In this document: piece by piece, positions 26,615-46,082 of the stretch
How the letters are laid out: every line of letters starts with the position of its first letter
Numbering within the stretch: the first letter of the stretch is position 1
NCBI GenBank assembly: GCA_040285745.1
Contig: JAUFOR010000004.1
Span: 1,302,001-1,366,000, forward strand
Reading direction: 5' to 3'
Source of the DNA: Barthelona sp. PCE
Taxonomy: Eukaryota
Length of the DNA: 64,000 nt
Made by a program: the position numbers and the translations under genes
The notes under the pieces: model-generated
What the model was told of the DNA's origin: nothing
Databases searched by the model: none
Seen by the model: only the letters and a program-made list of their open reading frames with translations

Positions 26615-26738
26615 TTGTTCATCAATCTGGGATCTTGAGGATCGGTTGCAATATGAAATTTGACATTCTTCAGAAAAGAACTTCTTTTCAACTAATGGAA
26701 TTCAAGAATAATTTCCATGCCTCTATTGGCCATGGGAA

Positions 26739-28841: not shown

Positions 28842-29033
28842 GTGAATGTGGTGAGAATACTGAAAACAATGACTATTGCATGTTTTCCACACAATTGTGT
28901 AATTGTGTGTGGGTTATATTTGATCCTCTGTCACAATATGCAAAAGTACTTGGTATGTACAGAAATTGCCAACATTTTTTGCACACTTTTTGTATCCATA
29001 TTAATCACAAATTGTTTATTAATGAAGCTAGGC

Positions 29034-30284
29034 CTAGAGGCACATGGAGAGGGCGGTCTCCATCTCGGCACGGGTGGGGTGCTCGACGTCGGTTCCGAAG
29101 TTGCCAGGGAAGTAATCGTAGTACTTGTCGAGGACGGTCTTGATGTAGTTCTCGGGTGTCTCACCGTCGAAGTACTCGCTGATGCGGGTCTTCATGGGTG
29201 TGGTCTTAACCTTGGCGTAGAAAGCCTCGAGGAACTCGTCGACGGTTTTGATGTAATCTCCGAAAAGGAGCTTGCCCCACTCGACAAAGCCCTCGTCGCC
29301 GTAGATGTTCCTGAACAGGTGCACGGCGGCGCGGAAGACAATGATGAGGGACTGGGCGTGCGTCATGAAGCCGCGCTCCTCGTTGTGGATACCGGACATA
29401 CAGTGACCGATCATGTGGACGATCCAGGACTGGACAGCGCCGTCACCGGGGTAGACGGAGAAGTTGAGAGCCTGTGTGGCGGCCCAACCGAGAGAAGCGT
29501 AGGTGCTGAGAACCTCCTCCTCAGAGAGACCCTCGGGGTTGACGAGGCGATCAAGGGAGTCGAAGAGGGACTTCTGCAGGCTGGTCAGGTAGAAGCGGCC
29601 GGCACGTGGGATGGCCTTGTCCTTGTTCTGCATCTGGAGAAGCAGATACTCGGAAATATGTGTGAAACCGTCGAAAGCAATGGAGGCAACGTGGTAGGGT
29701 GACAAGGTGGTCATGTACTTGGGGTTGATGGCGAGAGCCTTGGGGTAGAGGGAGGCGTTACCGAGGAAGCACTTCTTCTCATCAGAGGAACCCTCGATCT
29801 TGCGCTGCAGGACGGAGTTAGTGTTCATGCCGGAACCGGTTGCGGTCATGTAGTCGCATGCGTAGATGGGCATGGTGTGCTCGGAGGCACCAGGGACGGG
29901 GAGCTCACCGAGGTAGCAATCCCAGACATCCTTGCCCTCGACACCCTCGCGGCTAAGCTGGACGTCGACGACGATGGCCTTGGCGGTATCGAGGACGGAG
30001 CCTCCACCGACTGCGAGAATGGCTTCAGCACCACTCTCGAGGACGATCTCGGTCGCCTCCTTGACGAATGAGTAAATGGGGTTGGCACGAACGTTGCCCT
30101 TCTGGACGATCTCGATACCACGCTCCTCAGCGAGGGCATGGACGTCCTCCCAGGCACCGTTACGACGGATGGATCCACCGCCGAAAAGAAGAAGGACCTT
30201 CTTCTCCTCAATGGTATCGAAGAGCTTGGTCATCGACTCGAGGCCGACGTACAGTTTGGTAGGGTTTTCCCAGGCGTATTCCAT
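29034..30284 (-). CDS. Iron-containing alcohol dehydrogenase (butanol dehydrogenase BdhA/YqhD-like), copy A
   Basis: GGGSIRRNG, ANP, LAVGGGSVLDTAKA, TATGSGMN, FDGFTHISEY, WIVHMIGH, THAQSL (Asp plus three His metal ligands). Confidence 0.92.
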   Translation of the reverse strand: MEYAWENPTKLYVGLESMTKLFDTIEEKKVLLLFGGGSIRRNGAWEDVHALAEERGIEIVQKGNVRANPIYSFVKEATEIVLESGAEAILAVGGGSVLDTAKAIVVDVQLSREGVEGKDVWDCYLGELPVPGASEHTMPIYACDYMTATGSGMNTNSVLQRKIEGSSDEKKCFLGNASLYPKALAINPKYMTTLSPYHVASIAFDGFTHISEYLLLQMQNKDKAIPRAGRFYLTSLQKSLFDSLDRLVNPEGLSEEEVLSTYASLGWAATQALNFSVYPGDGAVQSWIVHMIGHCMSGIHNEERGFMTHAQSLIIVFRAAVHLFRNIYGDEGFVEWGKLLFGDYIKTVDEFLEAFYAKVKTTPMKTRISEYFDGETPENYIKTVLDKYYDYFPGNFGTDVEHPTRAEMETALSMCL

Positions 30285-30940
30285 TGTAATGCTGTTTTAA
30301 ATGAGGGTTGAAAAGCGTTAAGTGAGCTTCGGTGTCTGAGTGTCTGCTCAACGTCGCCGCCGAGGCATCTCTCGGCACGCCTGGGGCTGCATAGTGCATT
30401 TTCTGTGCGATACACCGGTAGAAAGATTTAATCAGGCAGGTGCCACCATTAATTGTGTGAGGCGGCCATGCTCAATGGGTGCCATTCGCAGCGGCGGCCA
30501 AGGGGTGCGAGCGGATCGCCTGGATCTGCGCGTATGCTGGATTTTGGGCGGCGGCACTTTCTTGCAAGCACCTGGGGCGCGATGGCGTTGACGGCGGCCG
30601 GCAACGCGCACCTGGCTGTGCACGCGACGTGGGAGATAGGATCGTCGCTTCTGTCACTTTCGAAATGTTTGGTTTTCAAGCAAGACAACGAATGTACATA
30701 TGTCAAGAACTGATTGTATTATGTGTATGGGCTTAAGGAATGTATTATACTAACTCCTTTCAGGGAAAAAGAATGGTTTCACTAAACTGTAGTGTTTAAG
30801 CATATCTAACCTTTTCTCCTGTTTTTAAAACAGTACTTGACTCGTTTAAACTCGTTTAACTTACTACATTTAACAAAAACAGAAACATTCAACATTTTTA
30901 TTTTTTATTTCCTTACTATCAATTATTTTAAACTTATAAG

Positions 30941-31540
30941 ATGACAAATGAGCAAAATAACAAGCCGCTGTCTTCCTTTGCAAGCGAATTAGATAAAAGG
31001 ATACGATTCAAAGCTGATGCATATTTAGATCAGCTTTTGCCTGGAGTGAGAGTAATTCCAAGTGAACATCACCACTGGGTATGTACTCATTGGCTCAGAG
31101 ACATGTGTCACAAGGGTGACGAGTGTGAATACCTTCATACTCTTGATAAAGATCGTATGCCACCTTGTAGATTCTACCATACACCTCAGGGATGTTCAAA
31201 TCCAGAGTGTTTGTATGGCCATTATGAGGCTGCTGCTAGATGCCCTTCATATGCACTAGGATTCTGTCCTTCAGGTCCATCATGTGTTTACAATCACGTT
31301 CACCAGCAACCGTGTGAGCACTACTTAGCAGGGTTCTGTCCCAGAGGTCCCGACTGCCCGTTTGGCCATCCTAAATATATTCAGCCTCCTAAAGCAGCCA
31401 ACGTTTGTCCATTTTGTGGTTCTCAAGAACATATTGGTCGTGATTGTTTACATAATCCTAACAGAAAGAACATCAAACAGCACGTTGATGGTATGATGCT
31501 TGGTAGTAGAAGAAGGAGAACAACTAAGGTGTTAATGTAA
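30941..31540 (+). CDS. CPSF4: CPSF30/Yth1 cleavage and polyadenylation factor
   Basis: VCTHWLRDMCHKGDECEYLH..DRMPPCRFY..CPSYALGFCPSGP..CEHYLAGFCPRGPDCPFGHPK and a CCHC knuckle. Confidence 0.9.
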   Translation: MTNEQNNKPLSSFASELDKRIRFKADAYLDQLLPGVRVIPSEHHHWVCTHWLRDMCHKGDECEYLHTLDKDRMPPCRFYHTPQGCSNPECLYGHYEAAARCPSYALGFCPSGPSCVYNHVHQQPCEHYLAGFCPRGPDCPFGHPKYIQPPKAANVCPFCGSQEHIGRDCLHNPNRKNIKQHVDGMMLGSRRRRTTKVLM

Positions 31541-31798
31541 GGTTTTTAGTGTCTGAAAGTCTATGACTTGACAGCTGGGGAACAGAGAGCGGTAGCGGAC
31601 GAGAATAGTATGATTTGTATTTGCGTTGCGTTCTATCCCAGAATTTTTTTTTTTAATCCAATTCGTTTTTTGTTATAAGAATCCTTTTAAAACCGACTTT
31701 GTTCCACAATGATAGTATCCACAGTAAACTTAAATCATTTGCAACGTAATTTTTTATCCTTTTTGTAGTACAACACATCATCTCTTTGAATTCTTTAA

Positions 31799-32839
31799 AT
31801 GGAAGTTGAGCGGGCAAAACTTGATCAGGACCTGCGCAATGTTACCAAAAGGTTCGAAAAGATCGAAAAAAGTGTTTTGCGTATGTTAAGAATCAATAGC
31901 AACGATGCAAGAAAGCGTTTGAACCATCAGGTATCGCAAGAGCTCAATTCCCTCGCAAACCTTAACGCATCATTATTGGCAATCCCTAAATCAGTAAGAA
32001 AATTTAAGAATCACAAATCTCAACACAAATTGTGGCTCAACATAAGAGAAACTCTGTATCTGTTAACGGATTCCCTGTGTTGTGCCTTTAGAACAAATGT
32101 TCCACATTGGGTTAACAAAAGAATCTTGGGTAGAGTGAAAGATGAAGTTACTCTCAAAACTGTGTCAAAGAAAAGTAGAGTCATCGATAAAAGGCCCAAA
32201 AACACACCAAAAACAGCGCAAAGAATGGATCTAAGAGATGAAAATTTATTGAATACACAACGTGTTCTTGATATGGATCTCATTCCACATGTTTCAACAC
32301 CCTCAACAATGTCCATCTCGCCCATAAAGCAATCAAGCGCATCGGCCAATGAGCGTATGATGCGTGTTATTATCAAGCAAGAACAGTTGTTAGATGTGCT
32401 TCAATCTCATATGGACGAATTGTATCATTTCAGGGAGCTTTTGAAAATGGATGAAGCGGCATCCTCTGAGGCACAGGCCGTGTACGAGATGAAAGCAAAG
32501 ACATTAGATATATATGGCTACGATTTGGAATTTCCAATCAAGCCTCACGTGTACAAACAGATTGATATGGATATAAATCAGCTCATTTTTGAGGTTGAAT
32601 CAGTGCAAAACATGCTTTTTCAGATGCATGCACCCCAAACTCCTCCTAAACTCCATGTTTCACATCGCTTAAGTTATGTTCAGCCTGATGTTGATGAACA
32701 TGTTGTCTTAAGTCCTCATATCGAAGAAACATGCGAAGAACCGCTGGAACTGGGGTTCTTGCCGTCTGCTGAGCCTTCACAAATATCAGCGTTAAGCAAT
32801 GCCTCTCATTCTGATTCTGATGCTTATGTGGAATTCTGA
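31799..32839 (+). CDS. Hypothetical coiled-coil protein
   Basis: 346-aa ATG ORF; no motif recognised. Confidence 0.7.
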   Translation: MEVERAKLDQDLRNVTKRFEKIEKSVLRMLRINSNDARKRLNHQVSQELNSLANLNASLLAIPKSVRKFKNHKSQHKLWLNIRETLYLLTDSLCCAFRTNVPHWVNKRILGRVKDEVTLKTVSKKSRVIDKRPKNTPKTAQRMDLRDENLLNTQRVLDMDLIPHVSTPSTMSISPIKQSSASANERMMRVIIKQEQLLDVLQSHMDELYHFRELLKMDEAASSEAQAVYEMKAKTLDIYGYDLEFPIKPHVYKQIDMDINQLIFEVESVQNMLFQMHAPQTPPKLHVSHRLSYVQPDVDEHVVLSPHIEETCEEPLELGFLPSAEPSQISALSNASHSDSDAYVEF

Positions 32840-32850
32840 TTGTTTAACAT

Positions 32851-34701
32851 TTATTTAGAGTGGGTGAATGCAATACCCTGTTGCTTTGATACGTCAGGGA
32901 TACCAAAACGTCTTGTATTGATTGGTAGAAGATCGTTAACGTCCATATCAAGCATTTGAGTGAAAAAATAGCTGTCACTACTCAATTGTGCAACAATCGC
33001 TTCGCTATCCTCACGGAAAAGATCCTCCTTTGGCTTGCTGAGGCTGTTAGTAAGCTCTCGCATGCGATTATCATCAAGTAAATCATAGGGTTCAATATCA
33101 ACCAGATGCGTTTCAGAAAATCGCTCAATTAGAGCATCAAAACGTTGATTTGAAACACCACCATCAATATAAGTGTCTTTAGAGTTCATTGCATTGTATA
33201 ATTCCTCTTCTTCTTCATCTAAATGGTCATCAAAGTACATGTCTTCATCGTGTGGGTCCTCCTGCATTGGTATATCGACGGGAGATGGAGGATTAACTGG
33301 AATCTTAACTTTTTCTTTCCTTTTCTTTGATTTCTCCTTTCTAGGTGGTGTTTGTGCTTTGACAGGACTATCTTTCTTCTTGTGAGCTTTCCTATCCAGA
33401 ATCTCAGCATATTCAGATTGCTCTAACTTGTGTTGATATGAATCCTTATCGTCACGAGCATTTTTCAACCTTTCTTCATGCATTCTCTTTTCCTTTTCCT
33501 TCCTTAACTTTCGCTTTTCGCGCTCCTCACGCACCTTACGTCTCTTTTCTTCCAACTCATGATCAACAACTGGTTCAGCAACTGGTTGCACTTTAGGTTG
33601 ATGACTTATAAGGCTATCAACGTCCATTCCCAATGCTCTAGCCTGTTCTATCTTTGAATCCAATTGTGCACGCATAAAATCCAACTCACCTGCAGTATCT
33701 TCAGCAAGTATTTGACTAACCTGAACAATTTCCTCTCTTAATAATTCTATTTTTGCGTCATCAACATCTAGTAAATTCTGCTTCATTGGTGGTAGGTCGA
33801 GGATAGATTCATCCTCTTCATCTTGTTCAAAGGTAGGTTCGGGCAACAATACAGACTTTTCTACAAAACTTTCTTCCTCCTCTGACTCAACAACTGGATC
33901 ACTCATCCTACTGTACGTCTCTCTGTCAACATTTGCTGCCCTTTCAACAATAGGTGAAACGCGAGGTATCTCTGACGCCATTGAATCCGCTCTCTTCCGT
34001 GGTTTTGGAATGTTGAGCTTCTTTTCCGATACAGATTTAACCGGAGTCACCTCGGGGGTTGGCTGTTTCAAAGGAACAACGACTCTTGATTTGGGAATTG
34101 CTCGCTGTGATAATTCTGTAAATTTTGGTGTTAAACGGCGTGACGCACTCCTCAGCTCCTCCTTAAGCTTGTTTTCAGCGTTAATATTATTCTGAAATAC
34201 ACGATTTTTAACGAGTTCTACCCTTGTTTCATCAAATCGATATTTGCGGTTTTCTTTACGACCAAATAGTGGTCTAAAACGTACCTTCTCACTTGATAAT
34301 GGTTTGTATTCAGAGCATGTTACAGGTGGAATAACTTTTTTCTTTTCCAGTTGCTGCCATAAAGGATCCTTGAACCTATTCAATTTCGTAAAGACAGCAG
34401 TCTTCTGACTGAGCAGTTGCAACATTGGCATATGCATTGGTTTCTGTAGAGTTAAGCTCAGACTCAGGTCATCAACTCCTACCTCATGGTAATCATTAAA
34501 AAGAGGTGTTTTGATGGAATACATTTCTTCCTTGTTTTCAAACGTGATTTGTTCGCGCGTTGGGAAGTTGTGTCTGTCAGGTGTGTGGAATTGGTCTGAT
34601 TCTTTTAAAACAGAAACTTCGCCCTTCAAAGCGAGAATTTTCTCCCGCTTAGCCCTTGCGCTTGCCCTTATTTCCTTACTCAACGGTGAATTTGTGGACA
34701 T
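32851..34701 (-). CDS. Hypothetical charged/coiled-coil protein
   Basis: 616-aa ATG ORF with E/K/R-rich segments. Confidence 0.75.
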   Translation of the reverse strand: MSTNSPLSKEIRASARAKREKILALKGEVSVLKESDQFHTPDRHNFPTREQITFENKEEMYSIKTPLFNDYHEVGVDDLSLSLTLQKPMHMPMLQLLSQKTAVFTKLNRFKDPLWQQLEKKKVIPPVTCSEYKPLSSEKVRFRPLFGRKENRKYRFDETRVELVKNRVFQNNINAENKLKEELRSASRRLTPKFTELSQRAIPKSRVVVPLKQPTPEVTPVKSVSEKKLNIPKPRKRADSMASEIPRVSPIVERAANVDRETYSRMSDPVVESEEEESFVEKSVLLPEPTFEQDEEDESILDLPPMKQNLLDVDDAKIELLREEIVQVSQILAEDTAGELDFMRAQLDSKIEQARALGMDVDSLISHQPKVQPVAEPVVDHELEEKRRKVREEREKRKLRKEKEKRMHEERLKNARDDKDSYQHKLEQSEYAEILDRKAHKKKDSPVKAQTPPRKEKSKKRKEKVKIPVNPPSPVDIPMQEDPHDEDMYFDDHLDEEEEELYNAMNSKDTYIDGGVSNQRFDALIERFSETHLVDIEPYDLLDDNRMRELTNSLSKPKEDLFREDSEAIVAQLSSDSYFFTQMLDMDVNDLLPINTRRFGIPDVSKQQGIAFTHSK

Positions 34702-35141
34702 CCTGTGTAAATTTGCGATTAAAACCTAGCAAAAACTCAGAAAGAAGTAGAAAGAAGTAAAACAAAATGGAAAGTTTCCCAGAATATCATACATCTCTTA
34801 TACATATCCAACAATTTACCTAGCATAAGGAAATTAAACTTGGATGAATCCACAAAAAGAGAAGAAAAATTTATGTTCTGCTTAAGATATTTTATGTGCA
34901 GAATGTTAGTGTATTGTGGAAAGTCGCATTTTTCCAATTCAGTAATTCATAATTAATCATAATAGATCAGGGTAATTCTATCTCTAAATTGTAAAAAATG
35001 TGAAAGTTCAATGCAAAGCAAATTTTTAAAGGATAACTATGACACAACTACATTTTTGGATGTACATGAACTCAGAAATATGTTTTCGGGTTTATCCAGT
35101 CTTTCTACATTTCACTTGTTCTCTTACGGCTTCGAATATCG

Positions 35142-36500
35142 ATGTCCAACCGAGATCCGATCAAGTGGCCAACAGCACGCCAGAAGCTACTTGAATATTT
35201 GAGCAAACAACCGAATTTGAGCGTTTTAAAGGAAAAAGATAATTTCCTTGTTTCTATTGACAAACCACAACGCATCATCGGTGTCGCAACATCGCCCCCG
35301 GGGAGTTTAACTCTCAGTAAGGATACTACAAAAGGTATACTGCTTAAAGACAATTCAAAGCAAACACCTTGCACTCCACGACGTAAGAAGAAGAAATCAG
35401 TGCGCCTGACTATCAGGCCGCGTATTTGGGTTGAAAAACGTATTGAATCATTTTACAATCATCGCTTCCAAAGTTTATCTCAACAATTAAAGACTGGAAA
35501 TATAGAAGAAGATTGTAAGGAAGCGCTGAAGCAATTTTTCAACGACACATTGGGTGTTGAGAACCTTGTACGCAAATCATATCTCACATTAGTTCAAAGT
35601 GCTCAAGCATGTGATAATAGCGTATTTGTATCGTTATTTTTAGATTTCTTTGAAGGTAAACGATCATTTACTGAATTCTTATGGTTCTTAGTTATGAGAG
35701 ATAAGGTGAAACAGTACAGTGTATTACAAAAAGGTAGATTGATAATTGAGAGAAAAAATTATACTCGTTGTCGTGCTGTTTTATTAGGAGTAGCTCTTGA
35801 AGCAGCCAGTTCTCTAGATAGCTTTGTATCATTTAATAAGAAAGGGCAACTTGATTATCTTCAATTGTTAACAGAAATTTTTGAATGTTTCATTTTGTTT
35901 TATAAACAAGAAAAATTGCAGGAAGATACAGATGAAGAATACTCAGAGCATGAGATGTTGGAAGAAATATATTCAACTCCATCAACTCCACACAAACCAG
36001 TTGATGTACAACATCCAAAACTGTTGAGCTCAGAGGAAGAAGAGGTAGTAGAAGAAGAAGCATACAGTTTGAATGATTACAATGAGTCTACTGATGATGA
36101 ACTGGATGATGATGATTATGATGATGGAGGCTTAATTACTCCTGAAGTTCTTCACAATTTAAAACAATCATTAATGGATCATCAAAATCAAAATCTTTCG
36201 CAAATTCAACAACCGTTGGATCTAATGAAATTAGCAGAGATGCCTCTGACCACTTCACCTTCTCCGTTAAAACAAACAACAATAATGCGTGAACAAACAC
36301 AAAGTCCATCACAAGTCGTAGTAACTTCGTTTGATAATATTTTAGAAGATGTAATGAAGGAAGATGAGGATGAAGTTGAGGATGAATCAAGTAGTGAGGA
36401 TGAAATTTATAATTATGAAGGAACAAATGAAGAATTGCTTTTAATGTCTCAAAAAACTGCAATGTTAAAAAAACTAATGCAGGATGAACAGTCTGTGTAA
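35142..36500 (+). CDS. Hypothetical protein with acidic C-terminal half
   Basis: 452-aa ATG ORF. Confidence 0.72.
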   Translation: MSNRDPIKWPTARQKLLEYLSKQPNLSVLKEKDNFLVSIDKPQRIIGVATSPPGSLTLSKDTTKGILLKDNSKQTPCTPRRKKKKSVRLTIRPRIWVEKRIESFYNHRFQSLSQQLKTGNIEEDCKEALKQFFNDTLGVENLVRKSYLTLVQSAQACDNSVFVSLFLDFFEGKRSFTEFLWFLVMRDKVKQYSVLQKGRLIIERKNYTRCRAVLLGVALEAASSLDSFVSFNKKGQLDYLQLLTEIFECFILFYKQEKLQEDTDEEYSEHEMLEEIYSTPSTPHKPVDVQHPKLLSSEEEEVVEEEAYSLNDYNESTDDELDDDDYDDGGLITPEVLHNLKQSLMDHQNQNLSQIQQPLDLMKLAEMPLTTSPSPLKQTTIMREQTQSPSQVVVTSFDNILEDVMKEDEDEVEDESSSEDEIYNYEGTNEELLLMSQKTAMLKKLMQDEQSV

Positions 36501-36550
36501 AACACCTCGTTCTTTTACAGAAATGTGGTTGAATTTGGTAATCCAGTAAA

Positions 36551-37001
36551 TTACTCATTGGAAGGCTTAATGACGGAAACCTCAAGAATGATGGAGGGAT
36601 CGAGAGGTACGTTGGTGATGCTACGGGCCTCGTCGGTACCAGCAAGAATATCTACAACACGCTTGTGGATACCCATGTCAAAACGGTGCCATGTCTTACG
36701 ACCCTCACCACAAGGAGTCTTCAAAGTGGAGATGGACATCTTCTTGGTGGGCATACGGATAGGTCCGCGGGTGCTGACTTGACGCTTCTTGGCGTTCTCG
36801 ACAACTAAACATAAGTTGATATTTGGCTAAATACAGCTTAGCAATGGCTTCGACTAAGTGCGTACAGATGCTACAGTACTCGAAAAACATTGTAAAAGTA
36901 TTCTAATACATACTACCTTGGCAAGCCTTCTCAAGAGGACGAACGGAAGACGAAGCAAGCTTAACACGGATGAAAGTGTTGGATTGGGCAATCTTGGACA
37001 T
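36551..37001 (-). CDS. RPS20: 40S ribosomal protein S20 (uS10); exons 37001-36914 and 36804-36551
   Basis: Spliced: MSKIAQSNTFIRVKLASSSVRPLEKACQGIVENAKKRQVSTRGPIRMPTKK..TPCGEGRKTWHRFDMGIHKRVVD. Confidence 0.95.
36805..36913 (-). other. 109-nt hairpin-containing intron of RPS20
   Basis: gtatgt...acttatgtttag; removal gives the conserved uS10 spacing. Confidence 0.88.
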
Positions 37002-37103
37002 TATAAATAACGTAAGGCCGAAGTAAAAAGGGTATTTAAGCTTAAAGGAAGTTGCTTTGTTTATTTCACTGCTTTTCATAGTGTATGTATACTTGATTAT
37101 AAC

Positions 37104-38093
37104 TTACTGCACACCTGCTGCAGAAGAAGTCTCTAAAGTTACAATTTGTTTTTCTCCAAAATTTTCTTGCATAAAATCAAGTACAAGAGGTAATCCTGTA
37201 GTGAGAGACTCGATAGCTTCCCATTTTAGAACTGTTTTTGCCACTTCAACACATGAACAACTGTGTTTAATATCACCTTCTCTTTCTGGGCCATATTCTA
37301 TTTCTGAGGCACTCTTACACACTGTGACGCATGTATCAGCGAGCTCTGTAATGGTTGACGTCTTTCCTGTTCCAAGATTCATTACTAGATGACCTGGATG
37401 ATTTTCAAACAAGTAGGTTGTGATAGCACGACATAAATCATGAACAAAAATAAAGTCTCTACTCTGTTCACCGTCACCAAAGATGATGAGTTTCTTATTT
37501 GCAAGTGCACGATCCATGAAAATGGAAATAACACCTGTATAAGGAGATTTCGGATCTTGCCTGGGTCCAAAGACATTGAAAAAGCGAAATGCGCATGTAT
37601 CAATTTCAAGTTCACCCATTATCTTCTCCATTAAATACTTGGATTCAGCATATGGGGATAAAAAGGAGTCACCTTCACAGTAATACTCTTTAATGGGTAG
37701 GCGTAGCTCATTGCCGTAGACAGCTGCACTAGAGGCACCACAAATCTTGACCAAATTTGGACAGGTAGTAATGAGATGATTAAACAGCTTTCTACTTCCC
37801 TCAACGTTAATTCTGTGGTACTTTTCAGGGTCTTTTACGGATTCTGCGACAGAAATAGCTGCTGCTAAATGGACACAATGAGTTATGTCAGTTGGTAACT
37901 TTTCTAAATCTTGCTGTATGGATATGTCCCCCTCATAATAGTCTACTTTGTCATGCTCCAGCACACAAAAGTTCTTCCCTGTCGATTGATCATCCATAAT
38001 GACAATATCAACATTTAATGGAAAGCACGCGCGTATATGATCAATTAAATTCGATCCAATGAATCCCAGACCGCCAGTTATGAGTACTTTCAT
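37104..38093 (-). CDS. NAD-dependent epimerase/dehydratase (UDP-glucose/UDP-GlcNAc 4-epimerase-like extended SDR)
   Basis: MKVLITGGLGFIGS, HLAAAISVAESV, ASSAAVYG, SPYAESK (YxxxK), RFFNVFGPRQDPKSPYTGVI, REGDIKHS. Confidence 0.9.
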   Translation of the reverse strand: MKVLITGGLGFIGSNLIDHIRACFPLNVDIVIMDDQSTGKNFCVLEHDKVDYYEGDISIQQDLEKLPTDITHCVHLAAAISVAESVKDPEKYHRINVEGSRKLFNHLITTCPNLVKICGASSAAVYGNELRLPIKEYYCEGDSFLSPYAESKYLMEKIMGELEIDTCAFRFFNVFGPRQDPKSPYTGVISIFMDRALANKKLIIFGDGEQSRDFIFVHDLCRAITTYLFENHPGHLVMNLGTGKTSTITELADTCVTVCKSASEIEYGPEREGDIKHSCSCVEVAKTVLKWEAIESLTTGLPLVLDFMQENFGEKQIVTLETSSAAGVQ

Positions 38094-38205
38094 CAAAAGA
38101 ATAGAAATAAAAGGAGAAAATGGATTGCACCTGAGTAGTTCGAAAAAAATATTTTCAACCAATGAAAAGTTTCCTTTATTGACAAAAATAGCATCAAATT
38201 AGTTC

Positions 38206-38977
38206 TTAACAGACACATGTACCACCGATATCATCATCAGGGGTTAAATCAGGCATCAAAATGTGATCATCCTCAACTTCAGGCTGATTCAACTCAAATT
38301 TCTCTTTCAACCTTGTAGCAATGTTGGCGAAAGCAGCATCAATGTTGATATTATCCTTAGCACTGGTCTCAATTGGTTGAGGTAGACCATAAGTTCGAGC
38401 AAATTCCTCAGCCATTTCAAAAGAGACTTGACGATCAGCTTCAAGATCACACTTGTTACCCACCAATAAAAGCTCAACATCAGGGTCAGCATCATTGCGA
38501 ATTGATTCAATAAGCTTCTTACAATCAGCAAATGAGTCGTGGCTAGTAATATCATACACTAAAAGGATACCAGAAGCGCCGTGTACGAAAGCAGACGTTA
38601 AAGAATGGAATCGTTCCTGTCCAGCAGTGTCCCACTAAATGTAAGGATACTCTAAATTATGAATCCCTTGAAATCCCAAAAGCAATTTTGCAGGTCCCTG
38701 TTCCCGTTCTACAGCCTGGGGCTTTTTAAAAAAGCGATTTAAAGAAAAAAAAACATACAATCTGTAATTTCACAAGTTTGTCGTCGATTGTTGTGTTGTG
38801 GACCTTGAAATCTACACCTAGGGTAGAAATGTGCTTGTGTGTCCACGTTCCATCGACAAAACGGGAAAGAATGGATGACTAAATATTAGAATAACTCCCC
38901 CTGGTGCACAATCATACCTTTCCTGCTGCGCTGCTTCCGATAATAAGTAGCTTGAAGAGATAGTCGAACTCTGACAT
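38206..38977 (-). CDS. Rab1-like small GTPase; exons 38977-38918, 38878-38759, 38634-38206
   Basis: Spliced: MSEFDYLFKLLIIGSSAAGK|SSILSRF..STLGVDFK..KLQI|WDTAGQERF..GNKCDL..ETSAK..CVC prenylation end. Confidence 0.92.
38635..38758 (-). other. 124-nt hairpin-containing intron 2 of the Rab gene
   Basis: gtatgt...ccttacatttag between LQI and WDT. Confidence 0.9.
38879..38917 (-). other. 39-nt intron 1 of the Rab gene
   Basis: gtatga...tctaatatttag. Confidence 0.9.
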
Positions 38978-39490
38978 ATTAAGAGAAGGTCAAAAACACG
39001 ATAACAAATTTCTTCTCGTTTTCATTTTATTGTTCTATATCATATGGATTTTCCTTTGTTTACTGGGGCTTGTTTTTAACACATGGGATTTATAAGGATA
39101 TAATTTGAATTTCCTTAACTTTTCATTTTCACTACCTATTTAAATATGCTTTGCTTCTGAATTTATCATCAAAATATCACTCGCTTTGCTATCTCACATC
39201 CATTATTGAACATGCAAGTCCATGAGGATGGGTTATTGTAATTGTGGTGCAAATAAATAGCAATGGTTTTCAATGTATATCAACCATTCAAAGCAATTAA
39301 TGCGCAACGACACACCATTAAATGTGGAAAAAAAGCAGAGGAACCAAAGTATGTGGGAAAAAAAATACTTCTTCTTTGTGACACTGTGCATCGGTATAAA
39401 GCCTCTCACCGTGCACCATTAGGTACCGCACTAGTCACCAGGGAAATAAATTATCTAGAAATCTACTTTCTCAAAAAAAAACCGTTTCCA

Positions 39491-40630
39491 ATGAGTACTA
39501 AGGCTGTTTTGGGCAAATTTTCATCAAGACTGAAGATGGGCATTGTGGGATTGCCTAATGTTGGTAAATCTTCAACATTTAACCTCTTCTCCACAAGCAA
39601 ACAAAGTGATGCTCAGAATTACCCTTTCTGTACCATCGATCCCACACAAGCAATTGTACAGCTTGAGGATCCACGCTTTGATCGCCTGTGCGAAATCTTC
39701 CAACCCCGTTCTCGCGTCCCCGCTTCATACGAGATTATTGATATTGCAGGACTGATTTCTGGTGCACATAGGAACGAAGGTCTTGGTTTCAAGTTCCTTG
39801 ATAACATTGCAAATTGTAATGGTATCTTTAACCTTGTTCGTCTTTTCCCTGATGATGATGTCAGTCACGTTGAAGGTACTGTTGACCCTGTCCGTGATCT
39901 GGAGATCATTGCTGACGAGCTCAGATTACGTGATCTTGCTGTTGTTATTGGTATGCTCCCTCAGTTCGAGAAAGATGCTCACCATGATGTCGAAGCTCGT
40001 AAGGCTCTTGCTATTGTCGAGCGTGTTAGAGATGCACTCGAGAATGGTCAACACGTTCGGTTTGTTGATTGGCACGAGAATGATGTTGAAACCGTCAATT
40101 CTCTCCATCTTCTAACCGCTAAACCATCTATTTATCTTCTCAATATGTCTGAGCATGACTTTTTGCGCAAGAAGAACAAGCATTTGAAGAGAGTATTCCA
40201 ATGGGTGCAAGCAAACGGTGGTGAGCAAATTGTTCCCTTTTCATGTTCTATGGAGCAGGAGATCATCAGAGATCCTGAGTACGAGCATAAGGATGAATCT
40301 CAACTTGATAAAATCCTTAGTGCAGGTTTCAAGTGCATTAATTTGATTTCTTTCTTTACTTGTGGTGCTGATGAGGTCCGTGCTTGGAACCTTCGAAGTG
40401 GTAATGGTTTCAATACCGCTGTTAACGCCGCTGGTGTTATTCACAATGATCTGAAGAACTCTTTCCGTTCAGCTGAAATTTACAAATACAGTGATATTGA
40501 TGAACTGGGTAGAGAGAGTGAAGTGCGTGCCAAGGGTCTGTTAAAGACTGTAGGACGTACATATCTTGTTGAAGACGGTGATTGTTGCTATTTCAAGGCT
40601 ACTTTAGCTAGAAGTGGCAAGCGTAAGTAA
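39491..40630 (+). CDS. OLA1: Obg-like ATPase OLA1/YchF (5' end uncertain)
   Basis: GIVGLPNVGKS, NYPFCTIDP, DIAGL, TAKP, FFTCGADEVRAW, AAGVIH, YLVEDGD. Confidence 0.95.
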   Translation: MSTKAVLGKFSSRLKMGIVGLPNVGKSSTFNLFSTSKQSDAQNYPFCTIDPTQAIVQLEDPRFDRLCEIFQPRSRVPASYEIIDIAGLISGAHRNEGLGFKFLDNIANCNGIFNLVRLFPDDDVSHVEGTVDPVRDLEIIADELRLRDLAVVIGMLPQFEKDAHHDVEARKALAIVERVRDALENGQHVRFVDWHENDVETVNSLHLLTAKPSIYLLNMSEHDFLRKKNKHLKRVFQWVQANGGEQIVPFSCSMEQEIIRDPEYEHKDESQLDKILSAGFKCINLISFFTCGADEVRAWNLRSGNGFNTAVNAAGVIHNDLKNSFRSAEIYKYSDIDELGRESEVRAKGLLKTVGRTYLVEDGDCCYFKATLARSGKRK

Positions 40631-40991
40631 AGTCTTTTCCTATCCCTATCTGTAAACAACCGTAATACTGATGTTCATACACGCTTAAAATTTATATTAG
40701 GAGAATAGAATCACGTAATTATGTTTTCGCCAAATGTTCGTTGTAGAAGTAATTTATATCTTTAAAGAGATGCCACCTTATATTTATATGCGGATATGCC
40801 TATAAATACAATACAAAAAAGCAAGAGGATCCATAAAAGCTGCTTAACTTTTTTTCCTTTATTCGATCCTCAAGTGGTATGTTGAAACTAGGGTTTTTAG
40901 CCAGGGTTGTCGATAGTGTTGCATCTAAATCATCTAGATATTCGTTGACATAACCCTTTTTTACTTTAGTCTATTCTAACATTCAGTAACT

Positions 40992-41384
40992 ATGGCTGAT
41001 TGGTACAATCAAATTTGTAGAGATTCTCTGTGTGCTAACCCCTTCATTGATGGCGCTATCATCATTGGTCCTGATGGTACCACATGGGGTAGCCACAACT
41101 TCGTCGTTGCTGGTCCCGATGCTACTAAGCTTGCTACTGCTTGCGATCAAACTCTTGGAACTATGATTAAAGTCAACGAATCCAATATGATGCTGGTTGT
41201 TCAGGAAGAAGCCAGTGATGATGCCTCAGAAATGGTTATCATGAAGGGTGGTGGTGCTTCCCTGGTCGGTTTCAAGTGTCTTAGGTGCATGCTTTTCGTT
41301 CTCTTCGCCAACGATGATAACCGTCCTTTGGCTACTGAGAAGGCTATTGAAATGAGTCAATACCTTATTTCACTTTCTTACTAA
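40992..41384 (+). CDS. Profilin
   Basis: 130 aa; MADWYNQI..GAIIIGPDGTTWG..C-terminal SQYLISLSY. Confidence 0.82.
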   Translation: MADWYNQICRDSLCANPFIDGAIIIGPDGTTWGSHNFVVAGPDATKLATACDQTLGTMIKVNESNMMLVVQEEASDDASEMVIMKGGGASLVGFKCLRCMLFVLFANDDNRPLATEKAIEMSQYLISLSY

Positions 41385-41465
41385 GACAAAGAAGGTGCTT
41401 TTGTGTAAAAGATTTGGACTTTTCGGATGATTGGTGGTTAAAAAATGAAGTAAAACTACAAAACA

Positions 41466-41851
41466 AAACATTTCGAAAGTGACAGAAGCGACGATCCTAT
41501 CTCCCACGTCGCGTGCACAGCCAGGTGCGCGTTGCCGGCCGCCGTCAACGCCATCGCGCCCCAGGTGCTTGCAAGAAAGTGCCGCCGCCCAAAATCCAGC
41601 ATACGCGCAGATCCAGGCGATCCGCTCGCACCCCTTGGCCGCCGCTGCGAATGGCACCCATTGAGCATGGCCGCCTCACACAATTAATGGTGGCACCTGC
41701 CTGATTAAATCTTTCTACCGGTGTATCGCACAGAAAATGCACTATGCAGCCCCAGGCGTGCCGAGAGATGCCTCGGCGGCGACGTTGAGCAGACACTCAG
41801 ACACCGAAGCTCACTTAACGCTTTTCAACCCTCATTTAAAACAGCATTACA
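41466..41851 (+). promoter_or_regulatory. GC-rich upstream region of the Fe-ADH with repeated CCAGGYG and GGCCGCC motifs
   Basis: CCAGGYG at 41521, 41561, 41613, 41752; GGCCGCC at 41537, 41637, 41669; mirrored at 30285-30670. Confidence 0.4.
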
Positions 41852-43102
41852 ATGGAATACGCCTGGGAAAACCCTACCAAACTGTACGTCGGCCTCGAGT
41901 CGATGACCAAGCTCTTCGATACCATTGAGGAGAAGAAGGTCCTTCTTCTTTTCGGCGGTGGATCCATCCGTCGTAACGGTGCCTGGGAGGACGTCCATGC
42001 CCTCGCTGAGGAGCGTGGTATCGAGATCGTCCAGAAGGGCAACGTTCGTGCCAACCCCATTTACTCATTCGTCAAGGAGGCGACCGAGATCGTCCTCGAG
42101 AGTGGTGCTGAAGCCATTCTCGCAGTCGGTGGAGGCTCCGTCCTCGATACCGCCAAGGCCATCGTCGTCGACGTCCAGCTTAGCCGCGAGGGTGTCGAGG
42201 GCAAGGATGTCTGGGATTGCTACCTCGGTGAGCTCCCCGTCCCTGGTGCCTCCGAGCACACCATGCCCATCTACGCATGCGACTACATGACCGCAACCGG
42301 TTCCGGCATGAACACTAACTCCGTCCTGCAGCGCAAGATCGAGGGTTCCTCTGATGAGAAGAAGTGCTTCCTCGGTAACGCCTCCCTCTACCCCAAGGCT
42401 CTCGCCATCAACCCCAAGTACATGACCACCTTGTCACCCTACCACGTTGCCTCCATTGCTTTCGACGGTTTCACACATATTTCCGAGTATCTGCTTCTCC
42501 AGATGCAGAACAAGGACAAGGCCATCCCACGTGCCGGCCGCTTCTACCTGACCAGCCTGCAGAAGTCCCTCTTCGACTCCCTTGATCGCCTCGTCAACCC
42601 CGAGGGTCTCTCTGAGGAGGAGGTTCTCAGCACCTACGCTTCTCTCGGTTGGGCCGCCACACAGGCTCTCAACTTCTCCGTCTACCCCGGTGACGGCGCT
42701 GTCCAGTCCTGGATCGTCCACATGATCGGTCACTGTATGTCCGGTATCCACAACGAGGAGCGCGGCTTCATGACGCACGCCCAGTCCCTCATCATTGTCT
42801 TCCGCGCCGCCGTGCACCTGTTCAGGAACATCTACGGCGACGAGGGCTTTGTCGAGTGGGGCAAGCTCCTTTTCGGAGATTACATCAAAACCGTCGACGA
42901 GTTCCTCGAGGCTTTCTACGCCAAGGTCAAGACCACACCCATGAAGACCCGCATCAGCGAGTACTTCGACGGTGAGACACCCGAGAACTACATCAAGACC
43001 GTCCTCGACAAGTACTACGATTACTTCCCTGGCAACTTCGGAACCGACGTCGAGCACCCCACCCGTGCCGAGATGGAGACCGCCCTCTCCATGTGCCTCT
43101 AG
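41852..43102 (+). CDS. Iron-containing alcohol dehydrogenase (BdhA/YqhD-like), copy B
   Basis: Protein identical to 29034-30284; one synonymous difference noticed (GTC vs GTT Val near 42928). Confidence 0.92.
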   Translation: MEYAWENPTKLYVGLESMTKLFDTIEEKKVLLLFGGGSIRRNGAWEDVHALAEERGIEIVQKGNVRANPIYSFVKEATEIVLESGAEAILAVGGGSVLDTAKAIVVDVQLSREGVEGKDVWDCYLGELPVPGASEHTMPIYACDYMTATGSGMNTNSVLQRKIEGSSDEKKCFLGNASLYPKALAINPKYMTTLSPYHVASIAFDGFTHISEYLLLQMQNKDKAIPRAGRFYLTSLQKSLFDSLDRLVNPEGLSEEEVLSTYASLGWAATQALNFSVYPGDGAVQSWIVHMIGHCMSGIHNEERGFMTHAQSLIIVFRAAVHLFRNIYGDEGFVEWGKLLFGDYIKTVDEFLEAFYAKVKTTPMKTRISEYFDGETPENYIKTVLDKYYDYFPGNFGTDVEHPTRAEMETALSMCL

Positions 43103-43294
43103 GCCTAGCTTCATTAATAAACAATTTGTGATTAATATGGATACAAAAAGTGTGCAAAAAATGTTGGCAATTTCTGTACATACCAAGTACTTTTGCATAT
43201 TGTGACAGAGGATCAAATATAACCCACACACAATTACACAATTGTGTGGAAAACATGCAATAGTCATTGTTTTCAGTATTCTCACCACATTCAC

Positions 43295-45430
43295 ATGCCT
43301 AGGGTTCGTAAATTCGAGGAAGACCTTGTCATGCAGGATTATCCTGAGGGGCAGATGATATTTGAGGGAGAGGGCGTAAGATTGCTTTCATCAAGAGAAA
43401 ACAAAGATATCAGCCTTATTGAAAGCGCCATTGAAGGCAAGGGCTTTGTTGGGTATGTGGAGGATACGCGTAAGCCTCTTCAACACACATCTAAGCTGAG
43501 AGCTGGAGAATCTTATATGATCATCGAACAGCTTTTTGATGATAATAACTTTTTAGCTCATTTTGATATCTTATTATTTAGTGAAATCATGAGTGCTGAA
43601 CATACAAGAAGGAGAATGCCCTTCCCATTAGAGATGAACAACTTTAGGAGGCTATGCAGGAAAGTATTTCCGATGGATGAAAACCACTTACTATTCACCA
43701 TTAGTGATATAGATATCTTTAATAACAGGCAAGTGAGGCAGTGCTACATATTAAATGTGCTAACCGAGGAATATAGATGTCTTGGAGATTATGACTCTCA
43801 ATCAACAAAAAATTCAAACTACATTTTGTTGAGGAAATACCAAGATAATTTCATATGGCATTACAATTTTTCTGTTGATGACATGGACGAGGCACATGAA
43901 CCTGATATTGAGCAGTTACATGGTGGTGTTCATTTAGAATACATCAGGTGGTGTTTGAACTCAGATTGCATTTGCTCAGTCAGGTTTCGTGATAAAGAAA
44001 TTGATGAACTAATAATATTTGACAGCCAAAGGAACCAAGTTAACTTAACAGAAAGGTTTCCGCAGCTTAAAGGATTGAATATTCCAAACAGCCCAGATAT
44101 GGGATTATTTGAGTTCACTCAAGATATTTTGTCAATGGTATTCATTGGTTCAAGATTCACAATGGTTCATGTCGAAAACGGTGAATTGAAGATGTTAGAG
44201 GGTAAACTGAATTTTAAGAATGTACACTGCAATGACTTGAAGCATATAGATTTGAATGATAATTCCTTTTGTGATGAAGATTGTGTTTTTTATGGGGTTG
44301 ATGAAATAACAGAACGTTATGGCCCAATCAAATTCAGAGCAGTTGATAATGAGGTTGTGAGTTTGAAAAGTCTTCACCCAAAGAAAATATTTTTTGATGG
44401 AAAAGCGGAAGTGTATGATGACTCTTTGATAAGATATTACTTTTTTTTCAAAGAAAGGAAGCTTATTGTGCTACATGGGCCATGGAAACCGCATTCACTT
44501 AGCAAAGAGGGGATCATATCAGTTCATCCAAATGAAGGAGGTGATTTTTTTGTAATGGCAGAGGACCGTGGTGAAACAAATACATATGTCAAATTATGCT
44601 GGAACGGCTCAGAATTTAAGCCAATCACAACCATTTTGCCTCATTGTGGTTCAGAAAACTATGGTTTTATTCAAGGGTTGCCCTTAAATGTTGACCGTCG
44701 TGCGGGTCGTGCAGGCTTGGTGTATTTAGGAAGTAAGCTGATTTTGGAGCTTCCACCGAATATTCATGTTCAAAGAGTTCATGGTTCACATTTTGATAAT
44801 TCAGCATGCATTTTTTGTGATAAAGCAATCCATTTTTTTCAGCTCAGTGTCAACGGGTATGATGTGGAGGTTCAAAAGCACATTGTTTTTGAACATAGAT
44901 CTGTGGAGGATGTTTTCTTCAACCCTCGTCCATTGGCTGCAACAGCTGATTATCAACTGTTTGTTGTGCAAGAAAATGTTCTAGTTATTGAAGAGGGATA
45001 TTTACATTGTCTTGATTGGTCAACAGGAAGCTTCTTAGAGCCTGTTCTCCTTTGGAAGGGATTTTATTATGATGAAGCGGAGGAAGGCCACAGTTTCCGT
45101 TATTTTGTGGGTGATTCATATATACACGTTAGGGGTGGTATCATTAAAGTATACGTTGAAGATGGTGCAATTGAAACGCATTTTTTCACAAACGATAATT
45201 TACCATATTCTCCTGATATGAAGATAAGCAACAATCATAATCTGCCCAATAACACTGTTCAAGACATGTGGTACGAAGAAGAGACCAAGACAATGGTGTT
45301 GAAAACATACAACGTTGAGGAAGACCCAGAATCGATGAATCCCACAGTTGAAACGTTCCATCTTCCATCGTTCCTGGCCGAGGCGTCCATCGTTGAGTAT
45401 TACATGCCAGATTATCATGAACATGTATAG
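43295..45430 (+). CDS. Unknown 711-aa beta-rich protein, copy B of a variable paralog pair
   Basis: First ATG at 43295; paralog of 26739-28841. Confidence 0.85.
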   Translation: MPRVRKFEEDLVMQDYPEGQMIFEGEGVRLLSSRENKDISLIESAIEGKGFVGYVEDTRKPLQHTSKLRAGESYMIIEQLFDDNNFLAHFDILLFSEIMSAEHTRRRMPFPLEMNNFRRLCRKVFPMDENHLLFTISDIDIFNNRQVRQCYILNVLTEEYRCLGDYDSQSTKNSNYILLRKYQDNFIWHYNFSVDDMDEAHEPDIEQLHGGVHLEYIRWCLNSDCICSVRFRDKEIDELIIFDSQRNQVNLTERFPQLKGLNIPNSPDMGLFEFTQDILSMVFIGSRFTMVHVENGELKMLEGKLNFKNVHCNDLKHIDLNDNSFCDEDCVFYGVDEITERYGPIKFRAVDNEVVSLKSLHPKKIFFDGKAEVYDDSLIRYYFFFKERKLIVLHGPWKPHSLSKEGIISVHPNEGGDFFVMAEDRGETNTYVKLCWNGSEFKPITTILPHCGSENYGFIQGLPLNVDRRAGRAGLVYLGSKLILELPPNIHVQRVHGSHFDNSACIFCDKAIHFFQLSVNGYDVEVQKHIVFEHRSVEDVFFNPRPLAATADYQLFVVQENVLVIEEGYLHCLDWSTGSFLEPVLLWKGFYYDEAEEGHSFRYFVGDSYIHVRGGIIKVYVEDGAIETHFFTNDNLPYSPDMKISNNHNLPNNTVQDMWYEEETKTMVLKTYNVEEDPESMNPTVETFHLPSFLAEASIVEYYMPDYHEHV

Positions 45431-46082
45431 TTCCCATGGCCAATAGAGGCATGGAAATTATTCTTGAATTCCATTAGTTGAAAAGAAGTTCTTTTCTGAA
45501 GAATGTCAAATTTCATATTTACACGGTTGGAATGTAGGTGAAACTGTCCAACTCACTAACCTGATTTGGTTCATCACATTCATTTTGAGCTGAATGTTCC
45601 AAATCCACCTTCACAACAGAGGTATGTTTACTTTCGGTCCTTAATCAATAAATAAATGCTCAAAAATTTCCTTTATCAGAGCTCCAAAGCACAGGGCAGC
45701 AATCGTGATGTACAAATTTTCATAACCTCATTCAGGGATGGCGAACACGAATTTACATGCAATATTTATGCGGACGCGCCACAAATAAACAGGACAACTG
45801 CCAACGAAGAAAAGAGAAAACCTGCACTTGAACTTTCTTCCTGTATGTGAGCATTTTGTCATATACGTGCCACCAACAGCAGATACCTCAAATAGGCGTC
45901 AAACACCGTGATTACTGTTACTACTTATTGTGGATTGCCTGTTTCACATTGTTAAATGTTTGACAGTATTGTGTACTCACACCCCACTTCTATCCATTTG
46001 TTTGACTTTTTAATGTTACCGTAATTTGTGTTTTTTATTGAAGAAAGTGTTTTGAATTTTTCTGCCTTTTCACTGAATAGCA

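Follow-up and report, generated by a model that had tools for sequence, protein, structure and literature searches.

Segmental gene conversion as a probable source of mosaic divergence between duplicated members of an orphan beta-propeller-like protein family in Barthelona sp. PCE

Segmental gene conversion diversifies the var genes of Plasmodium, the VSG mosaics of trypanosomes, ves1 in Babesia and the VSP genes of Giardia, whose products are secreted or surface proteins and many of which form clustered or subtelomeric families that are expressed singly. Inside the cell, hypervariable WD40 propellers are a hallmark of the HNWD proteins (het-d/het-e/het-r) of Podospora anserina, fungal NLR-like factors of non-self recognition that are described in those portions of PMC1805685 and PMC2873952 on which we draw here. 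The present analysis concerns a stretch of 64,000 nucleotides (nt) of eukaryotic DNA (the window; positions 1,302,001 to 1,366,000 of contig JAUFOR010000004.1, assembly GCA_040285745.1) from Barthelona sp. PCE, a free-living anaerobic metamonad. Its open reading frames (ORFs) are long and intronless at a GC content of ~41%, and two of them (A and B, ~700 codons each) occupy the two arms of an inverted duplication together with copies of a gene for Fe-alcohol dehydrogenase (Fe-ADH, below ADH). A and B are members of a large orphan Barthelona family, and our data suggest that they were probably diversified by segmental gene conversion after a recent duplication.

As with HNWD, the Barthelona proteins form a family of (here: predicted) intracellular beta-propeller paralogs which exchange sequence among each other and keep a conserved scaffold, and in both cases variability is found at particular propeller positions, which in Barthelona are alternate loops on one predicted face. 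To go by the same portions of PMC1805685 and PMC2873952, this is a likeness in workings and not one of membership: exchange in Barthelona takes place between whole-gene paralogs at matching positions, whereas in HNWD it occurs between near-identical internal WD repeats. Further differences are that Pfam detects neither a NACHT/STAND (NB-ARC) NTPase nor an HET effector or WD40 signature in the Barthelona proteins, that positive selection is undemonstrated in their family and that the host is a free-living metamonad. With var, VSG, ves1 and VSP the family has in common that it is large and lineage-specific, with conserved ends and a mosaic interior drawn by ectopic recombination from a shared pool of segments (in Barthelona at protein level); unlike theirs, its proteins carry no hydrophobic signal or membrane segment as judged from hydropathy, and its genes are spread over 7 contigs and stand, in our window, among housekeeping genes of a free-living organism. 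Two consecutive propellers, which we predict here, are also seen in IFT-A, coatomer beta', the Utp proteins of the small subunit (SSU) processome and DDB1. These, however, share no sequence similarity with the family (whose profile has 0 matches to PDB sequences at E up to 10) and are single-copy and conserved, whereas the Barthelona family is expanded and variable. Among the systems compared, HNWD is the nearest structural analogue, and the Barthelona family is lineage-restricted and without their defining features.

Self-BLAST of the window returns a single repeat, in which 26650-30676 pairs with 45519-41460 in inverted orientation (91.55% identity over 4,085 columns). Similarity drops off sharply at both boundaries of this 4.06-kb duplication, whose cargo is the Fe-ADH gene and the ~700-aa ORF, the latter starting ~190 nt downstream of the former in each arm (Table 1). 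How the two arms differ depends on where one looks. Across 41466-43368 (1,903 nt) a single base is changed (42928, within the ADH gene); across 43369-45361 as many as 347 of 2,048 alignment columns differ (16.9%), with indels that are all in-frame; and across the outermost 158 nt (45362-45519) identity is restored. One and the same duplication thereby holds a contrast of more than 300-fold (1/1,903 nt vs 347/2,048 columns). Within the divergent part, differences cluster beyond chance: 44999-45088 is the exact reverse complement of 27081-27170 over 90 nt, forming part of an exact tract of 91 nt (44998-45088), and the 10 codons adjoining it read QENVLVIEEG versus YTRSEEAATQ. When the same differences were placed at random, the longest identical run averaged 34 nt and reached 80 at most, so that 0/2,000 placements attained the 91 nt observed, and differences counted per 30 nt have a variance-to-mean ratio of 3.62 as against 0.83 in simulations (maximum 1.36). 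The peptide variant encoded by the 91-nt tract, WKGFYYDEAEEG, is present in A and B only and is therefore a relic of the duplication or the product of exchange between A and B.

The ADH genes next to A and B supply a clock. Both arms encode identical ADH proteins, the sole nucleotide change (42928) being synonymous, and these match the Fe-ADH profile PF00465 (E 7.8e-24) at 84.6 bits, well above the curated cut-off of 31.3. Other Barthelona entries for an ADH amount to a shortened model of the same gene, and the next matches are at ~27-33% identity, those with a name being bacterial. Since the ADH has no other paralog and, with it, no donor for ectopic conversion, it can be used to time the duplication. 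A scenario with ADH genes travelling along with the family was considered and rejected, the ADH of this locus being the only one in the protein collection.

Two observations on the ADH stand apart from its use as a clock. Its region has a GC content of 0.47-0.49 (0.38-0.40 nearby) and its remote relatives are bacterial or from metagenomes; lateral transfer may have brought the gene in. In addition, an open frame of 286 aa runs antisense to each copy (42434-43294 on the minus strand, 28842-29702 on the plus strand), for which the high GC content of the coding strand is probably responsible.

Relatives of A and B abound in Barthelona. A protein search found 39 of them at 45-76% identity (copy A included), a profile search through 1.84 billion representatives contributed 15 more, some of them very divergent, and 3 further N-terminal fragments bring the family, with B itself, to a total of ~58 gene models or fragments. 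They are dispersed over 7 of the 8 contigs, and all 20 family-profile matches among the 1.84 billion representatives are named as Barthelona sp. PCE. Several models are short (144-481 aa), and the alignment of 34 full-length members has 75 invariant columns. Pfam holds no family for the whole ORF proteins at E up to 1, and when four pieces were searched at E up to 10, chance-level rows were all that appeared (the weak ones include MBB1 at 0.2 and CBM_X2 at 0.066); in the ESM Atlas the best score (0.82) falls within the range of shuffled sequences. The genome of Barthelona sp. PCE (10.2 Mb, 8 contigs, 5,064 predicted proteins) is reportedly the smallest of any free-living eukaryote, and the family has no mention (no occurrence of "gene famil") in the portion of the genome paper available to us (PMC11316075). 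Our literature searches met with no paper joining Barthelona to "gene conversion" and, among the papers listed, with nothing relevant on a mosaic beta-propeller family in protists. As a side observation, two members, P0007 and P0009 (PCE1_002816, PCE1_002815), carry consecutive locus tags on one contig, and further neighbouring pairs like A and B may exist.

Seen against this family, the cores of A and B are at least as close to paralogs from other contigs as they are to one another. Their 76% identity in protein equals the value for P0004 in the protein search, and the nearest paralog shifts along the gene (40-column windows): for B it is P0013 (aa 77-174), P0010 (212-354), P0016 and then P0022 (393-420), for A it is P0012/P0014 (202-447) and then P0035, which is 100% identical to A over aa 607-631 despite an overall identity of just 50%. 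Other paralogs contain both states for 142 of the 158 residue differences between A and B; 16 differences involve one private state and none two. Exact 9-mers common to other paralogs cover 667/711 residues of B and 677/700 of A, the longest exact shared tract being 104 aa (A with P0012). A GENECONV-style permutation on 480 gap-free polymorphic columns of the 34 full-length members (without six shorter rows) placed 84 of 561 pairs above all 300 permutations. Linkage, measured as r2 between informative columns of 31 main-clade sequences, shrinks with distance (0.136 at 1-5 aa, 0.045 at 21-40 aa, 0.035 beyond that; 0/500 permutations were equally negative), which sets a decay scale of ~20-40 codons, and all four residue combinations are found in 90-99% of column pairs. 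Trees of five segments differ in their nearest neighbours. By the approximately unbiased (AU) test, A+B is rejected in aa 212-354 (p=0.0002) and not rejected in aa 77-211 (p=0.35), and also rejected are B+P0010 in aa 77-211 (p=0.015) as well as B+P0013 (p=0.017) and A+P0015 (p=0.041) in aa 212-354. P0035 (PCE1_002516, on the contig of our window) is itself recombinant between a divergent subfamily and the main clade: aa 1-540 resemble P0037 (0.8-0.98 identity), from ~aa 580 onwards it resembles the main clade (0.8-0.9), and the switch lies between aa 541 and 608. The changing nearest paralog, the 142/158 shared states, the decay of linkage and the conflicting trees thus all argue that segmental, non-allelic gene conversion generates the pattern.

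A and B nevertheless retain traces of common descent. D15 and F590 are states private to the two, and three peptides they share (at aa 15, ~170 and ~590) are absent from the 56 other members, with at least two of these falling on nucleotide-identical tracts. Together with the ADH clock (1/1,903), such A/B-only states point to a recent duplication that was followed by ectopic conversion, an order of events we infer, and duplication of the whole 4.06 kb before short conversion tracts arrived is the simplest reading. Mechanistically, the recent inverted duplication would have copied the ORF together with the neighbouring Fe-ADH gene, and many short ectopic tracts from dispersed family members would then have replaced the greater part of the ORF in A, in B or in both. 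ADH and flanks, for which there is no homologous donor elsewhere, would have remained identical, and the nucleotide-identical tracts inside the ORF would be remnants of the original identity. On this model the paralogs would reshuffle a common stock of short cassettes and alternative residues, such that variation is combinatorial and the scaffold stays under strong purifying selection.

Much of this had been anticipated in an initial annotation of the window, which was made from the letters alone and described a pair of paralogs with patches of divergence between identical blocks. The patchiness is confirmed (the 90-nt block is exact, the ten adjoining codons read as quoted there and the clustering was matched in 0/2,000 placements), identical or near-identical ends are borne out by the 1/1,903-nt and 158-nt stretches that flank the core, and the duplicated ADH does encode an identical protein. 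Its argument that neutral decay is unable to give such a pattern is supported, and so is its proposal of segmental conversion from a larger family, given the ~58 models and the mosaic proteins of the family. Its estimate of overall identity by eye (~70%) was on the low side; we measure 76-78% in protein.

Does selection act on what conversion delivers? Between A and B, Nei-Gojobori estimates are 0.130 for nonsynonymous divergence (dN), 0.244 for synonymous divergence (dS; 0.24-0.26 across estimates) and 0.53 for their ratio (omega). Calculated per 30 codons, dS varies between 0 and 0.40, which fits segments of different ages. With codons sorted into quartiles by family variability (A and B themselves being excluded from the ranking), omega rises from 0.05 in the most conserved quartile (dS 0.31) via 0.42 (dS 0.14) and 0.44 (dS 0.28) to 1.28 in the most variable one (bootstrap 0.86-2.10; dS 0.33). 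Because omega is as low as 0.05 in the most conserved quartile, the scaffold is strongly constrained and the genes are functional. The most variable quarter evolves at a rate near neutral or slightly above it, and positive selection is undemonstrated because the 0.86-2.10 interval contains 1; in windows of 30 codons, local omega goes up to 1.25-1.77. Frequent conversion should homogenise the family, yet each hypervariable patch comes in 30-36 variants among 40 sequences, and this may be taken as an indirect argument for selection.

An AlphaFold2 (AF2) model built with 34 family sequences (mean predicted local distance difference test, pLDDT, 64; predicted TM-score, pTM, 0.45) is all-beta, with pLDDT of ~80-90 for aa 445-635 and below 50 for aa 1-66. 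Between aa 364 and 703 it has 28 strands, i.e. 7 predicted blades. Top matches in Foldseek (E 1e-10 to 1e-8) are proteins with at least two consecutive propellers (IFT-A, Trm734, DDB1 and SSU-processome subunits), though at low global TM-scores (0.15-0.27), since their domains are oriented differently or the orientation is predicted poorly. VIA-align superimposes aa 355-690 on seven-bladed propellers (Z 10-12.8, root-mean-square deviation 4-5.7 Å, 250-296 residues) and aa 64-690 on the tandem-propeller proteins IFT-A, SSU processome and coatomer beta' (Z 9.5-12, 350-470 residues). As a prediction, then, the proteins adopt the beta-propeller fold, a class defined by antiparallel four-stranded blades around an axis, usually seven to a domain. 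The WD40 profile (PF00400 clan) finds no match in the whole proteins at E up to 1 or in four pieces at E up to 10. Successive loops of a propeller alternate between its two faces. In the C-terminal propeller (27 loops), loops of one parity have an entropy of 1.70 bits and those of the other parity 0.73 (p=0.0006). The N-terminal propeller alternates just as clearly, albeit with a phase slip near aa 192-215, and turning-point tests that are free of parity support it for both (N 15/16, p=0.007; C 21/25, p=0.027). Such alternate-loop variability would put the variable patches on one face of each predicted propeller.

By family entropy, the first ~77 and the last ~50 residues are the most conserved parts of the protein. 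The N-terminal module also heads an otherwise unrelated protein kinase of 958 aa, P0043 (PCE1_002956, on another contig), with homology limited to columns 1-77 at 79% identity (BLASTP, hhalign). Either the module may be separable and work independently or, with P0043 as a chimera, 5' ends of the family may have been spread by recombination. In a separate model of the first 110 residues, aa 1-64 show strands and a helix in the order strand-strand-helix-strand at low confidence (pLDDT 52-60); with this low-confidence model Foldseek returns nothing at E up to 0.001, and the VIA-align rows obtained (Z up to 4.2) span aa 65-110 only. A hydrophobic segment is not seen (maximum 19-residue Kyte-Doolittle mean 1.13) and the N-terminus is charged (MPRVRKFEED...), signal or anchor having been judged from hydropathy.

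For the protein, too, the initial annotation can be held against these data. Its beta-rich, propeller-like protein has turned into two tandem predicted propellers on the strength of AF2, Foldseek and VIA-align, and its statement that membrane segments are absent agrees with the hydropathy. Where it placed variation on surface loops, the AF2 model upholds one half of the idea, i.e. variable sites on alternate loops of one face, and not the other: coil is just modestly more variable than strand (1.36 vs 1.14 bits). Diversifying selection on these loops is not demonstrated by omega values of 0.53 overall and 1.28 (0.86-2.10) in the variable quartile, and a ubiquitin-like N-terminal module goes unsupported, with no Pfam match, no ubiquitin-like fold match and a model of low confidence. 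Its suggestion of a part in protist defence likewise finds no support here.

Other origins for the patches have to be weighed against conversion after a recent duplication. Positive selection of newly arisen point mutations in surface loops, with conversion in a minor role, could draw on omega of 1.28 in the most variable quartile and 1.25-1.77 in 30-codon windows, on patches that follow alternate loops of one face and on the 30-36 variants that each patch has among 40 sequences. To our minds it is very unlikely to be the main source, given that 142/158 A/B differences have both residues in other paralogs and none has both private, that omega of the whole gene is 0.53 and the interval of the variable quartile (0.86-2.10) spans 1, that dS between 0 and 0.40 along the gene is unlike point mutation since a single duplication, and that the adjoining ADH region has changed at 1/1,903 nt. 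A different order of events, which we consider unlikely, would have the duplication old, its ADH half homogenised by conversion from arm to arm (as in palindromes) and the ORFs diverging slowly with some ectopic exchange. Inverted repeats are established substrates of such arm-to-arm conversion, the dS of 0.26 in the A/B core is typical of old paralogs and identity returns over 158 nt at the outer end. However, arm-to-arm conversion must then halt both ways a short distance into an ORF with 83% identity and exact tracts of 38-91 nt, and the A/B-only peptides at aa 15, ~170 and ~590 suggest that A and B once had the ORF in common over its full length. Ectopic conversion would be required anyway for differences that are drawn from the family pool.

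As for an artefact of assembly or polishing, in which mis-assigned paralog reads produced a chimeric consensus or one arm was mis-joined, the data are early Nanopore reads (Albacore, ABruijn) with Illumina correction via Unicycler, according to the part of PMC11316075 at our disposal, linkage decays over 60-120 nt, about the length of a read, and NCBI gene models at the locus are shortened. Yet A and B are uninterrupted for 700 and 711 codons and have in-frame indels only, omega of 0.05 at a dS of 0.31 in conserved codons is a biological signature, exact protein tracts of up to 104 aa are shared (A/P0012), paralogs that are 15-25% apart should let short reads place well, and completeness by Merqury is given as 98.4% for the assembly in the same part of PMC11316075; all told, we regard such an artefact as highly improbable. 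A decaying or selfish repeat, for instance the ORF of a mobile element without cellular function whose mosaic is a by-product of repeat recombination, might account for the many dispersed copies with several short models (144-481 aa), for the confinement to one lineage and for the 5' module grafted onto a kinase gene. It seems extremely improbable to us in view of 75 columns that are invariant across 34 full-length members, omega of 0.05 at conserved sites and housekeeping neighbours; moreover, Pfam detects no domain of a transposase, integrase or reverse transcriptase, the duplication took in ADH plus ORF and not the ORF alone, and the window contains no other family fragment.

Several points weigh against our preferred reading of a recent duplication diversified by ectopic conversion. 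Outside A and B the evidence for mosaicism consists of protein sequences only, and in the protein run test the A-B pair itself is not significant (p=0.07). Where a site tolerates few residues, repeated substitution could account for part of the column pairs with all four residue combinations. The clades submitted to the AU test were picked after the trees had been inspected, and for one of them, A+P0012 in aa 77-211, there is no rejection (p=0.8). Short reads were used to correct the assembly (ABruijn, Nanopolish, Unicycler, as stated in the accessible part of PMC11316075), a procedure that could create or erase short mosaics in a multicopy family. On the structural side, confidence in the AF2 model is moderate (pLDDT 64, pTM 0.45), the predicted placement on one face is derived from strand order rather than coordinates, and the N-terminal propeller gives no significant result in the fixed-parity test (p=0.54) because of its phase slip near aa 192-215. 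The alternative order of events, an old duplication with an ADH homogenised from arm to arm, also counts here, improbable as we find it and in need of ectopic conversion all the same.

The surroundings of the pair are ordinary. Genes around it encode housekeeping proteins (DNA polymerase epsilon, Utp14, UFD1 and a DEAD helicase), and those in the spacer include a CCCH zinc-finger protein, an NAD epimerase and a YchF-type GTPase (Pfam scans); tblastn across the window found no further family fragments besides A and B. Public gene models fall short of the open frames: PCE1_002179 (226 aa) agrees with the 711-aa ORF B for 219 residues and then diverges, and PCE1_002437 gives the ADH 289 aa where the frame is open for 416, both probably through spurious intron calls. 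An ORF at 55390-58266 on the minus strand has EF-hands and weak WD40/propeller matches. Its length (958 aa) equals that of the kinase chimera P0043, but the two have no similarity, and the idea that they are the same was rejected.

Table 1. Coordinates in the window of the inverted duplication, its genes and predicted protein parts
Feature	Position	Strand	Basis
Arm B of inverted duplication: upstream region, Fe-ADH gene, ORF B, ~90 nt of 3' flank	41460..45519	+	self-BLAST, per-60-nt identity, exact runs
Arm A of inverted duplication, mirror of arm B	26650..30676	-	self-BLAST, identity profile
Spacer between arms, 10.8 kb, unique, ordinary genes	30677..41459	.	no self-match; Pfam scan of ORFs
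Family ORF B, 711 aa	43295..45430	+	ORF; NCBI model PCE1_002179 matches first 219 residues only
Family ORF A, 700 aa, protein P0006	26739..28841	-	ORF
Divergent mosaic core of ORF B, 16.9% of columns differing from A, in-frame indels	43369..45361	+	identity profile, exact runs
Longest exact tract in divergent core, 91 nt, encodes WKGFYYDEAEEG	44998..45088	+	exact-run scan; peptide comparison
Fe-ADH copy B, 416 aa	41852..43102	+	Pfam PF00465, E 7.8e-24
Fe-ADH copy A, 416 aa	29034..30284	-	one synonymous base apart from copy B
Conserved N-terminal module, aa 1-66, homology to ~aa 77	43295..43492	+	family entropy; BLASTP and hhalign vs P0043
Predicted N-terminal beta-propeller, aa 67 to ~350	43493..44344	+	AF2 strands; tandem-propeller matches
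Predicted C-terminal seven-bladed beta-propeller, aa 355-690	44357..45364	+	VIA-align; 28 strands

What such shuffling might be good for can be said tentatively. It is possible, albeit with more doubt than confidence on our part, that shuffling has been retained since it diversifies one binding face per propeller, so as to yield a repertoire of binding proteins with common N- and C-terminal handles. Going further, the family may be an intracellular repertoire of receptors or adaptors of variable specificity, in which one face binds a ligand, the conserved ends join a common partner and unusually active short-tract conversion sustains diversity, a proposal we consider rather doubtful; the N-terminal module on the kinase P0043 hints at a link to signalling. 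Whatever the function, ~58 models mean that ~1% of the genes fall into one orphan family that goes unmentioned in the portion of the genome paper seen here (PMC11316075). With a single-copy and a family gene duplicated together, the locus is a rare internal control, and the ratio of 1/1,903 to 347/2,048 gauges directly how far ectopic conversion outpaces point mutation. If it is true that the variable face binds ligands, the family would be a protist counterpart of fungal WD40 recognition repertoires and a manageable system in which to study why so streamlined a genome maintains a family that is diverse and costly. And were the receptor-repertoire reading to hold, a system resembling innate immunity, or one for recognition of non-self or prey, would take up ~1% of the genes in the smallest known genome of a free-living eukaryote.

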